DNA of 61,583 bases, filler included, from Sphacelaria rigidula (taxonomy: Eukaryota), in NCBI GenBank assembly GCA_964200075.2. It is 8 parts of 8 records of this genome, joined end to end, with 100 filler letters (N's around TTAATTAATTAA, not from the genome) between each part and the next. Parts side by side here need not be neighbours in the genome. Positions count along the whole stretch, not along the records: positions 23,134 to 30,743 come from CAXNAA020014098.1; 7 more parts are not named here. One strand, written 5' to 3'. Positions 23,616 to 27,837 of the stretch are shown one piece after another (position 1 is the stretch's first letter; each line of letters begins with the position of its first letter). The position numbers and the translations under genes are program-made. The notes below the pieces were generated by a model, which worked only from the letters and a program-made list of their open reading frames with translations, did not search any database and was not told where the DNA came from.

Positions 23616-24535
23616 AAAAGGAGGGTTAGCTTCTCTATTCCATGTCGGTGTCCGGGCTGTGTTCTAGTGGGTTGAATAAAAAGGAGGGTTAGCTTCGGCG
23701 TCCAACTCCTAATATCGCGCCGTGCGTCGCGTGAGCGAAGTTCACGCCTACTCTTGGCTGGCCCCGTATGCCGATTTTTTCAATCCCAGGTGTTTTCGGG
23801 GGGGAGGGGGGTGTTACTAAATCCCATACACGAATTAAAAATAAATAAATGTAGAAGACAAAAATTCGTGTCAATAAAGCTTTAATTTTTCGCATACCTT
23901 CGGAGTCAAGGCCAAGCTATATTCATGAGTTTCGGCACTACATTTGAAATCACACTTCCACAAGAACAAGACCAGACAATTACCACAATGATGTGCAATG
24001 CTAGCTCAATCGAGATTATAACGCGCATCTCTGTGCCGCCAATTTGGTCCAATGTTGTGGTGGCAGGTAAGGCCAGCAGTCATGGGCGCTACCTCATCCA
24101 ACTCGCCCTTGAACATGGCTATTTATTCGGTCTTACTGTGAAAAAAATCGAACGACCGCCGAGGGGGAAGGGGGGGGGGGACATGGGGGTCTAGGAGGGT
24201 TTTTGGGGCACTCTTGACTAGACCCAGATCAAAACTCACAAAACGCGATGCAAGCAACACGTATAATGAAGCCCTCGCAACGCTTCGATTCTTCGTAAAA
24301 AACTCGAGTGATTTCTGCTTCTCAATCACGTCCTCACGCTGTCATCGCAACGAAGCTCCACACCTCCGAGGAGTTGCATCGTGCATCCAGAATGAATCCG
24401 TCGGCGCTTAAAGGTTTGCGTAACTCCTTGACCGGAGTGTAACCCGGACGACTTGCACTGCACAGGCTGGCAAGTCTGGCTACGGCATTTTGGAAGTTAT
24501 GAAGGTCGCCAGAGGCTCGCTTCCTTTGGGAAAGA

Positions 24536-24556
24536 GGGTGGTGTTGAGTAAACACC
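24536..24556 (-). terminator. Histone 3' stem-loop of H3 (GGTGTT-TACTC-AACACC followed by ACCC)
   Basis: The reverse complement of 24536-24560 reads CCCTGGTGTTTACTCAACACCACCC, identical to H1 26558-26582. It lies 80 nt after the stop codon. Confidence 0.85.
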
Positions 24557-24636
24557 AGGGTTTGTTTGGGTCGTACCACCCGCGACGGGTGCCTAGATCC
24601 TACAGATTGATCGCGAGCAGTGTTGCCACGCTCGGT

Positions 24637-25047
24637 TTACGAGCGCTCGCCGCGAATGCGCCGGGCAAGCTGAATGTCTTTGGGCATGATCGTAACGCGC
24701 TTAGCGTGGATGGCGCACAAGTTCGTGTCTTCGAACAGACCAACCAGATACGCCTCAGCCGCCTCCTGTAGGGCCAGGACGGCGGAACCCTGGAAACGAA
24801 GGTCGGTCTTGAAGTCCTGCGCGATCTCACGCACCAGGCGCTGGAAGGGTAGCTTGCGGATCAGTAGCTCGGTTGACTTCTGGTAGCGCCTGATCTCGCG
24901 CAGGGCCACGGTTCCGGGTCTGTAGCGGTGAGGCTTCTTCACGCCACCTGTGGCAGGTGCCGACTTGCGAGCGGCCTTGGTGGCGAGTTGTTTGCGGGGA
25001 GCCTTGCCTCCAGTCGACTTACGGGCGGTCTGCTTGGTACGGGCCAT
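24637..25047 (-). CDS. H3: Histone H3, canonical/replication-dependent type, intronless, 136 aa
   Basis: Translation [69 protein letters not shown]...[55 protein letters not shown]. The true ATG is at 25047; the ORF track's upstream extension to 25182 is spurious. A31, no introns and a 3' stem-loop fit the canonical class. Confidence 0.99.
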
Positions 25048-25376
25048 GTTGGGAAGTGCTTCGCGTGATGTTTTCGACGAGATATTGTAGGGTGTTGTTG
25101 AGTTGTGTGATTGGGGGGCGGTACGAGACGTCGGTAAAACTGTTTGTTTGAAGAACCCCCCTAGGTTTTGGCCATCTCTCAATTCAAAATTCTGTCATGG
25201 TCCTGATTGGCCTAAAACGAAGTATGTGAAATTTTAATCTACGAACCGTCACTTTGCGTTTTCTGGAACTCCCTTCATTCCCGACAAACCGCAATGCCCC
25301 CCGCCCCCGCCGTACCCCTCACTACTCCTAGTCACACCATTTCATCTTCCATCTCTATCAAACGACAGTGACAACC
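25048..25376. promoter_or_regulatory. Bidirectional H3/H1 promoter region
   Basis: 329 bp between the divergent H3 and H1 start codons, with a CCAAT box (ATTGG on +) at 25206-25210. Confidence 0.7.
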
Positions 25377-26502
25377 ATGCCGACCTACAACGAGGTGAGC
25401 GTCGATTGGATTGTAGGTGCGTGATTTGAATGAAATGTAGTGCCGAAACTTTTCAATGTTGAAGGTTAGATTCGGTAACACCGATCATGGACTAGAGCGA
25501 GATGATACAGACTCTGCAGGAGTTGAGGAGCAGTTGCGCACAACAGCGCAGACTGTATACGGAACCGATAGTGTAACACACGACATCGCGATCACGGATG
25601 CGGGCCAGTAGACAGGATTTGATCCAGTCGGGGGAGTTCTATTTTCGAATGATGGCTGCTACTGTACCGACTGTTGCGCTTAACCTCCACCTTGCAACTC
25701 GTGCGATGCGACATATCGGCAACTTCGGCAGATGGTCTTTGAGGCCATCAAGGCCCTGAAGGAGCGCAACGGCTCTAGTCTTGCAGCCATCAAGAAGTAT
25801 ATGGTCACGACTCACCCTGATCTGGCCACGAAGTTCGCGCCGCATCAGCTTCGTGCCACACTCAAGAAGGGAACCGAATCCGGGAAGTTCATCAAGGTAT
25901 GCCTGCAGTACACGCGAGAAGAGTTCCATATATGAGGGATGGGTGCTTTTTTGTGAGGGCGCATGCAGTAGTAGGAGAGAACAATATCGCTGTAGCCCCC
26001 CCCAAAACGGGGTCTACATTCGAATGAGAATAATGAGAGCCGAGTAAATCCCACGCTCGGGATCGTAGAAGATGTGTTGACTAGTAGCGCGAGGGGAGCC
26101 AGGCGCTTGGAGTCCTAGTCAGACCCTTCTTGTTCTTCATGCTTGCCCCATGTTGCTGTAACTTGTCTTCAGGTGAAGAGCTCGTACAAGCTGTCGGCCG
26201 AGGCAAAGAAGCCGGCGCCGAAGCCGAAGAAAAAAGTCGTGAAAAAGGTGGTGAAAAAGCCCACCAAGAAGAAGGTGATCAAGAAGACCCCGAAGAAGGT
26301 CGTCAAGAAAACCGTCACCAAGAAGGCGGCTGCCACCCCCAAGAAAGTTGTCAAGAAAAAAGCCGTTTCCAAGAAGGCGGATGGCACTCCCAAGAAGGTC
26401 GTCAAGAAGAAGACTGCCACCAAGAAGACTGTCACCCCCAAGAAAAAAGCCGTCAAAAAGAAGCCCGTCAAGAAGGCGGCCCCCGTGAAGCCAGCAGCCT
26501 AG
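25377..26502 (+). CDS. H1: Linker histone H1, 3 exons (25377-25394, 25732-25896, 26173-26502), about 170 aa
   Basis: Exon 1 MPTYNE|gtgagc. Exon 2 cag|MVFEAIKALKERNGSSLAAIKKY...QLRATLKKGTESGKFIK|gtatgc, the winged-helix globular domain. Exon 3 cag|VKSSYKLSAEAKKPAPKPKKK..., a Lys/Ala/Pro/Val-rich tail with TPKK motifs. Both introns are GT-AG and phase 0. Confidence 0.95.
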
Positions 26503-26561
26503 AGGTTCCACTGAAAGTATTTGTTCGCCTGTCAGTCTAAAACCGGCAACCAACAACCCCT

Positions 26562-26582
26562 GGTGTTTACTCAACACCACCC
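26562..26582 (+). terminator. Histone 3' stem-loop of H1 (GGTGTT-TACTC-AACACC followed by ACCC)
   Basis: Perfect 6-bp stem with a 5-nt loop, 59 nt after the stop codon. It has an A/C-rich 5' flank and an ACCC 3' flank, and is identical to the H3 element. Confidence 0.85.
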
Positions 26583-27837
26583 ATTCCAAGGGAGACTTTG
26601 ACGCGAACGATGCTGCCTGCCTTGGATACCATGTCAACGCAACTGGTGTACAATGTGGTGTTGTATACAGAGCGCGACAGGTTTTGAACTCTTACTTGGA
26701 GCGAGGCCCGGCGTCTTGTACTGTATTCTCTCTGATTTCAACAGAAATATTCAAATCCAATTTCTACTGTCCGAATATATGCAAGACGCCGAATGCTCAA
26801 TTTTCGAAATCTAATATCGCACAGGTGGTAGGAGAGGGGGTAATCCAAGGGACCTCCTCTTGTCCTCTGTCAACAGGGCCCGCAGGCACAGCACTGTACC
26901 GTGCGCCAGCAATAGACAGTCGATCATCAAAACTGAGGATACAGTTTTTTGTTGATTGGATCACCTAAATTCCGCGAAATTGTTGCTGTATCTAGGACCC
27001 CAACATTTGTAGCAGTTGTCAACAGCTACTAGTGGGTGAAAAATGGAGAGTGTTGAACAGTTTTGTTTCGAAAGACAAAATCGGAACAAATACAGCACAG
27101 TACTGTACGCTTTTTTCAGATGATTATCCATGGGATGTCTCAGTAGATATCAGTCGAGGACCATCGTTGTTTGCCAGTTTAAGAGGGGGCAGATTGCTTG
27201 GGGGCCTGCTGTTGCCGTGGTCGCGGATTCTTACCTGCCGACCCTCTTGTACTTTCCGATTTCGAATTTTTATTTTCCCCTTGAGTCATCAAGCACGAAT
27301 ACCCCCCGGTAAATTCTAGAAAAATATTACAAAACGAGCGTGAGATTTTGAACTATGAAATCCTCAACATGTGTCGAGCTCTCCTCGTTACAGTACATGC
27401 GATCTGGGGCAGCAACGGGTGTAAGTCCAACTGACGATGACATTCTCGTGTCGGATAATTCGTGAAAACATGTTTTTTGTGTATTGTACGGCAGGATGAC
27501 CCATCTGGATCGCCCAAGGAATACTTCGCGGGAGATGAAAACCCCGACCACCGCGACACACTTTCCTCACCAGTTTGCCCCAATCTACGGATGAAGGAAT
27601 TTCATGGCGAGAAACACCAGCTCTCCCATGGATTTGAAATACATTACATGAATCCATCCGAACAGATCTTATTATACTTGTATGGCTCACGATCATGAAT
27701 CGCAATTTTTTGCAAAATCGGTCATAATGTCGAGGTTGACCTTGGGCTTCCCTATTCGCTTACTTTCAGCAGGCGACAACGTCGAGTGTGATATTCGAAC
27801 TTGTATGGTCAAAAAAACACTATTCTCTACACCCGCC

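Follow-up and report, generated by a model that had tools for sequence, protein, structure and literature searches.

Histone mRNAs without poly(A) tails, together with 3′ stem-loops and SLBP, are described for green algae in the accessible portions of two studies (PMC13130582; PMC13525598), both of which also cite histone 3′ palindromes from Volvox and Chlamydomonas. In Cycas debaoensis, poly(A)-less histone genes carry the sequence GGUGUUUUUUAACACC, as given in the accessible part of one of these studies (PMC13130582, Table S9). For stramenopiles, the available text of a preprint survey (10.64898/2026.10.14.759114; Zhao, Bond, Ni Leathlobhair 2026) reports homologues of LSM10 and LSM11 in Ectocarpus, and describes the stem-loops downstream of stramenopile histone genes as lying further downstream and being less conserved. 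Histone stem-loops outside animals, including those of algae and of intron-containing genes, are already known in principle. The original papers on the Volvox and Chlamydomonas palindromes are reportedly Muller 1990 and Fabry 1995. Here we describe a hairpin that follows two histone genes, H3 and H1, in the brown alga Sphacelaria rigidula (assembly GCA_964200075.2), within a stretch of 61,583 bases that is referred to below as the window. With a probability that we put at about 70%, both hairpins are histone mRNA 3′ stem-loops of the brown alga and belong to an algal class with a 5-nt loop.

The element is a 25-mer, CCCTGGTGTTTACTCAACACCACCC, present as two exact copies in the window, each in the sense orientation relative to its own gene: at 24536-24560 on the minus strand in the 3′ untranslated region (UTR) of H3, and at 26558-26582 on the plus strand in that of H1. 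No further copy or near copy was found in the 61.6-kb window, and none of 100 dinucleotide-preserving shuffles matched the 25-mer, even at 3 mismatches. Both copies fold as GGUGUU / UACUC / AACACC, with the stem-loop proper at 24556-24540 in H3 (flanked by CCCU and ACCC) and at 26562-26578 in H1, and with a possible seventh stem pair from a flanking U-A. Six copies were folded, and for each of them the minimum-energy or centroid structure contains the hairpin. Its stem starts 80 nt after the stop codon of H3 and 59 nt after that of H1, and it is letter-for-letter the same behind the two genes, whereas the stramenopile stem-loops in the available text of the preprint (10.64898/2026.10.14.759114) are described as distant and less conserved. 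Outside the 25-mer, the H3 and H1 UTRs resemble each other no more than shuffled sequences do, with local alignment scores of 6 upstream (shuffled 6.85 ± 1.27) and 9 downstream (shuffled 10.3 ± 1.6). An exact, sense-oriented 25-mer shared by otherwise unrelated UTRs points to selection rather than local duplication. These results agree with what an initial annotation, made from the sequence alone, had reported for this region, namely 25 nt common to both UTRs, a 6-bp stem GGTGTT/AACACC with loop TACTC, and no other relation between the UTRs. Elsewhere in the window, a GC-rich hairpin with a 6-bp stem and a 5-nt loop was noted at 12824-12840 (minus strand; GGGCGC ATTCA GCGCCC, then ACC); A or C makes up 6 of the 15 bases of its 5′ flank, and it is probably a chance occurrence.

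Compared with the metazoan stem-loop (Rfam Histone3, RF00032), the algal element shares the position in the 3′ UTR, 30-130 nt past the stop codon of replication-type histone genes, as well as a 6-bp stem with a GG start and a U-A closure, set between an A/C-rich stretch on the 5′ side and ACC(C) on the 3′ side. In both, U is the first base of the loop and occurs again two positions before the last, a purine run usually follows at about 9-12 nt, and the element is invariant within one genome. The differences are that the algal loop has 5 nt (UACUC) instead of 4, that the algal stem reads GGUGUU instead of GGCYCU, and that the algal element is also found on intron-containing histone genes. In its stem, the brown-algal hairpin is identical to the Cycas stem-loop (GGUGUU/AACACC), which has a 4-nt loop, UUUU as against UACUC, in the accessible table. 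The Rfam Histone3 model aligns end-to-end with the H3 copy at 14.5 bits (E 3.6), matching the GG, the U-A closure and the ACC, and places one extra base in the loop (U[A]CUC against UUUa). The gathering score of this family is 34 bits, and canonical stem-loops used as controls scored 29.8-34.2 bits (L131 and L083) and 21.7-21.9 bits (L107); in the whole window, no Rfam family was found at its gathering score. Taking the features that define RF00032 together, the element has the sense position in the 3′ UTR, the 6-bp GG...U-A stem and the A/C-rich 5′ and ACC 3′ flanks, and departs from the family in the loop (5 nt, as opposed to a 4-nt UYUN) and in falling short of the 34-bit gathering score. 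We read it as a histone stem-loop of the plant/algal stem type with a loop one base larger, which on the sequences compared appears to be like RF00032 in every feature that can be tested.

The flanks were compared with those of other stem-loops. In the window, A or C occupies 14 of the 15 bases 5′ of the stem in both the H3 copy (24557-24571, minus strand) and the H1 copy (26547-26561, plus strand). Averaged over copies, the A/C count in this 15-nt flank is 13.5 for 6 histone-linked hairpins and 13.0 for 3 other eukaryotic ones, as against 8.4 for 14 chance controls, and the ACC 3′ flank is invariant in 9/9 eukaryotic copies. A generic stem-loop scan over 697 kb of fetched sequence returned 222 canonical 4-nt-loop stem-loops, located in contaminant histone clusters; all of these are A/C-rich on the 5′ side, show GG...CC, close with U-A and continue into an AC(C)A flank and, further on, a purine-rich stretch.

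Copies of the hairpin were also found in public sequence. Scanning public metagenome contigs with an exact 20-mer, GGTGTTTACTCAACACCACC, gave seven loci (L001-L007). At one of them, L007, the hairpin stands 35 nt past the stop codon of an H1 gene (Pfam Linker_histone, 2.1e-21) that is intronless and unrelated, and three more (L001, L003 and L006) lie on eukaryote-like contigs and show the same flank pattern as the histone-linked copies; having the full pattern, these three are not chance matches. The remaining loci were set aside as chance, L002 and L004 being the same bacterial coding sequence in duplicate, and L005 having flanks that do not match. A covariance model, R1, was built from six hairpin copies; it scores 59.2 bits on the H3 copy in the window and 59.3 bits on the H1 copy, and it also picks up many canonical 4-nt-loop stem-loops at 14-22 bits via their common flanks. 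Searched against 66 H3-bearing IMG/VR loci and against 71 contigs with H3 that are eukaryotic contaminants of prokaryote genome bins, R1 found two new cases. In L058, GGUGUU UAUUC AACACC ACC stands 33 nt past the stop codon of an intron-containing H4 gene, so that intron-containing histone genes with the hairpin now number two, this H4 and the H1 of the window; the initial annotation, which had proposed that the hairpin acts on intron-containing histone genes, is supported in placing it there. In L130, GGUGUU UAUUA AACACC ACC lies behind both of two divergent H4/H3 genes, 126 nt (H4) and 74 nt (H3) past the stops. A second hairpin further downstream was considered as a common feature and dropped, as the H3 copy and L007 can form it and the other copies do not do so consistently.

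The organism behind L130 can be placed from its proteins. Its H3 is letter-for-letter identical to the H3 of "core chlorophytes", its H4 is shared with Picochlorum sp. SENEW3 and Chlorella variabilis, and a coproporphyrinogen oxidase encoded next to them has its nearest relatives among chlorophyte proteins, with an 86%-identity cluster that includes Picochlorum proteins. By these matches L130 is a green alga close to Picochlorum. Its hairpin agrees with the brown-algal one in stem, ACC flank and loop length (5 nt), and differs in the loop bases (UAUUA as against UACUC). Since the same 5-nt-loop stem occurs in this green alga, the enlarged loop is not peculiar to the brown-algal lineage. The initial annotation had proposed a variant histone 3′-end system of this lineage: the position and flanks of the hairpin support its being a histone stem-loop, and the restriction to one lineage has to be given up. 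In all, four sequences unrelated to one another (the window, L007, L058 and L130) contain six 5-nt-loop hairpins behind genes for H1, H3 or H4, 33-126 nt past the stop codons, with loops UACUC, UAUUC or UAUUA and with the stem GGUGUU/AACACC in all copies of the class. The same annotation had noted that absence of the motif from other histone genes would speak against it; the hairpin was found to follow H1, H4 and H3/H4 genes on L007, L058 and L130.

Viral contigs gave little beyond this. The exact hairpin had no match in them, and a relaxed-loop scan returned 21 loci, of which only L166, the same place as L058, is of histone type; the others look like chance matches in phage-like DNA. Among the 66 H3-bearing IMG/VR loci, 59 were scanned for a GGUGUU-type hairpin within 250 nt past any H3 stop codon and none was found, and over all 66 the sole histone-type match of R1 was the L058 H4 hairpin. 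One IMG/VR contig, L040, has GGTTCG TACT TGAACC followed by ATCC at 77 nt past an H3 stop codon (L040:1908+77), which makes it a candidate for another non-canonical histone stem-loop, with a UACU loop. Eukaryotic H3 genes are present at all 71 loci from prokaryote bins (L077-L147, GTDB species representatives), often within tandem histone clusters that have canonical stem-loops; this is contamination of the genome bins by eukaryotic hosts.

The class that emerges from these alignments appears to be defined by an invariant GGUGUU/AACACC stem, a closing U-A, a loop U-A-Y-U-M, and flanks that are A/C-rich on the 5′ side and ACC(C) on the 3′ side. Read base by base, its loop would correspond to the animal UYUN loop plus one extra A. 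The histone 3′ UTRs of distant algae contain a strand-specific, structure-forming, sequence-invariant RNA-type signal. Downstream of it, a purine run recurs. In the window, the candidate histone downstream elements are AAAGGAAG (24527-24520, minus strand), 12 nt past the H3 stem, and AAGGGAGA (26588-26595, plus strand), 9 nt past the H1 stem; both are 8 nt long, and 30 random bases would contain a run of at least 8 with a probability of 0.046. The corresponding runs elsewhere are GAAAGAGA (L001), GAAAGAAGAGGG (L003), AAAAGAA (L006), GAGGAG (L007) and GGAAAGAA (L130 H4), so that a downstream purine run of at least 6 is found in 7/9 copies as against 2/14 controls. Such a recurrent run would fit a histone downstream element, and does not define the 5′ end of a U7 RNA. 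An SLBP-type protein would bind the RNA hairpin, and the pre-mRNA would be cut a few bases past the stem, within or just after ACC(C), with the aid of a U7-like small nuclear ribonucleoprotein that base-pairs to the purine run 9-12 nt further on. The outcome would be a cell-cycle-coupled histone mRNA without a poly(A) tail, the spliced H1 mRNA included.

Several observations weigh against reading the hairpins as histone stem-loops of this kind. There are only two histone genes in the window. With Rfam Histone3, not only the H3 copy but also the copies in L130 (16.4 bits), L003 (17.7 bits) and L006 (19.7 bits) stay below the gathering score, and the window H1 copy is not reported by that model at E ≤ 10. 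Three of the four eukaryote-like metagenome copies (L006, L001 and L003) have no recognisable upstream histone gene: in L006 the hairpin (L006:578-597, minus strand) lies 114 nt past the stop codon of a RING-finger open reading frame (ORF; L006:715-1245, minus strand), and in L001 (L001:493-512, plus strand) it lies 39 nt past the stop of an orphan ORF (L001:1-450, plus strand) that has no Pfam family, 2 metagenome relatives and no useful Atlas match, both on marine metagenome contigs. The hairpin may therefore not be exclusive to histone genes. The purine run is only 4 nt long in L058 and L130 H3 (2/9 copies), and the "boxes" downstream of H3 and H1 in the window align no better than chance. 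No match to U7 (RF00066) was obtained in the window at the gathering score or at E ≤ 10, and both cleavage at the hairpin and tail-less ends are steps that we infer.

The downstream box deserves a closer look, as the initial annotation had built upon it. It had reported a similar box behind both genes; the strings it quoted are present, and what they have in common is limited to the 8-nt purine runs. The complement of the box occurs at chance level, with 17 matches in the window as against 12.6 expected. An exact box-complement site at 20982 was considered as a lead to U7 and rejected, there being no Sm-like site near it. Without conservation of the box sequence, the 5′ end of a U7 RNA is not predictable from the box, and the proposal that the box predicts the 5′ end of a U7-like RNA did not hold up. 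Its suggestion to look for a complementary small RNA with an Sm-like site yielded no supported candidate in the window, which was the extent of this search.

Part of this evidence would suit a different account, which is the main rival to processing at the hairpin: the stem-loop would be of histone type and retained because it serves the stability, translation or cell-cycle control of mRNAs that are polyadenylated downstream, with no U7-type cut at the hairpin. Stem-loop histone genes with polyadenylated or mixed transcripts are reported for moss, fern and Cycas in the accessible text of one study (PMC13130582), and introns, such as those of H1 here, are a trait of polyadenylated variant histone genes in animals in the available part of another (PMC13525598). 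The purine run, weak in 2/9 copies and not conserved in sequence, and the lack of a U7 candidate in the window likewise speak for this account. Against this stand the invariance of ACC(C), where animal mRNAs end, in 9/9 eukaryotic copies, the purine run at the expected distance in 7/9 copies as opposed to 2/14 controls, and the U7-specific LSM10 and LSM11 reported for Ectocarpus in the available text of the preprint (10.64898/2026.10.14.759114). On balance we consider downstream polyadenylation with a retained hairpin unlikely.

More remote accounts take the hairpin out of histone mRNA metabolism altogether. It could be a conserved 3′ UTR element for another factor, such as a general 3′-end, localisation or termination signal outside the SLBP pathway, with a likeness to histone stem-loops that is convergent. 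In favour of such an account, the exact 20-mer also stands behind the RING-finger ORF of L006 and the orphan ORF of L001, and the sub-threshold Rfam scores and the loop of 5 bases, not 4, are compatible with it. It is made quite improbable by the placement of 6/9 eukaryotic copies behind H1, H3 or H4 in four unrelated sequences, by a stem identical to that of the Cycas histone stem-loop and flanks that match the 222 canonical stem-loops, and by the report, in the accessible portion of PMC13130582, of SLBP and of histone mRNAs lacking poly(A) for the green-algal group of L130. Finally, the shared 25-mer could be without function, arising by chance, as a remnant of UTR duplication or gene conversion, or as part of a repeat or mobile element. 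That only two copies are visible in the window leaves room for this, yet we give it hardly any credence: no shuffle out of 100 matches the 25-mer and no similarity extends outside it, the copies are strand-specific to their genes with no further copy in 61.6 kb, and the same hairpin lies behind histone genes on three unrelated public contigs.

Returning to histone stem-loops of an algal 5-nt-loop class as the preferred reading, the copies without a histone gene allow a wider and more speculative version of it. GGUGUU-UAYUM-AACACC-ACC might be an old green/brown-algal class of invariant sequence, with an SLBP that fits the extra base, which has also been adopted by non-histone genes in some marine protists. 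We hold this idea tentatively and with more doubt than belief; if it were true, a tail-less, S-phase-coupled 3′-end pathway would not be restricted to histones.

A published description of a brown-algal histone stem-loop was not found in our literature search. The term "stem-loop" is absent from Bourdareau 2021, Rousselot 2025 and the Phaeoexplorer preprint (10.1101/2024.02.19.579948), and the hairpin sequence strings had no match in a literature text search. In its available text, the stramenopile survey (10.64898/2026.10.14.759114) is stated to admit only 6-bp stems with 4-nt loops in its scan, and to count 3- or 5-nt loops among the 36 missed of 44,646 Rfam entries. An element with a 5-nt loop could thus not be reported by that survey. 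There appears to be a general blind spot here, as the Rfam gathering score and scans fixed at a 6-bp stem and a 4-nt loop both miss the 5-nt-loop class, and stramenopile stem-loops may perhaps have been described as distant and poorly conserved because this class was missed. If the mRNAs end at the hairpin, an animal-type poly(A)-independent histone mRNA pathway would work in brown algae, an independent multicellular lineage, and would there act on spliced transcripts as well. With its extra base, the loop is a ready-made case for studying loop recognition by SLBP, and transcripts of replication histones may be under-counted where brown-algal RNA-seq relies on poly(A) selection.

The two genes that carry the hairpin are divergently arranged. 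The H3 coding sequence (24637-25047, minus strand) is intronless and encodes 136 amino acids of the replication-coupled H3.1 type, with a Pfam Histone match to its translation at 5.6e-48. In having A31-T32, GSAVL and a C-terminal S, it agrees with the brown-algal H3.1 signature, the residues of which are given in the legend of Fig. S22 in the accessible portion of the Phaeoexplorer preprint (10.1101/2024.02.19.579948). Judging by gene positions, the interval 25048-25376, which is assigned to neither strand, would hold a shared divergent promoter and the 5′ UTRs of H3 and H1. H1 follows on the plus strand in three exons: exon 1 (25377-25394) encodes MPTYNE and is colinear with the N-termini of Ectocarpus and Pylaiella H1, exon 2 (25732-25896) encodes the winged-helix globular domain, and exon 3 (26173-26502) encodes the lysine-rich tail and includes the stop codon, with VKSSYKLS... 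standing directly after ...GKFIK in Ectocarpus H1. The two introns, of 337 and 276 nt, are GT-AG. Exon 2 has 97 relatives, with Pfam PF00538 on all 97 of those listed, and is also backed by tblastn; the best named relatives, at 69% identity, are from Ectocarpus sp. 8 and Pylaiella littoralis. Annotated H1 proteins of these two species run unbroken across both exon junctions, so the H1 gene model holds, and with it the initial statement that this H1 contains introns. No H4 was found in the window by tblastn. Downstream of the H3 3′ region, at 23607-23700, there is a direct repeat of about 22 nt (AATAAAAAGGAGGGTTAGCTTC), in two copies 64 nt apart.

A few other features of the window were recorded. 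Runs of 44 N's occur in pairs at intervals of 7710 bases (7613-7712, 15324-15423, 23034-23133, 30744-30843, 38454-38553, 46164-46263 and 53874-53973), a regular spacing that suggests masking rather than assembly gaps. Of the 131 ORFs of at least 90 amino acids that were scanned, one at 48991-49491 (plus strand) matches Pfam DUF7507 (4.5e-07, 30.3 bits, cut-off 27), the only family above its cut-off besides H3. At 36950-37095 lies a near-perfect inverted repeat of 146 nt, with a fold of -109.7 kcal/mol (z -17) and sub-threshold Rfam matches to microRNA precursors (MIR847 at 46 bits), which could be a locus resembling a miniature inverted-repeat transposable element or a hairpin-RNA locus.

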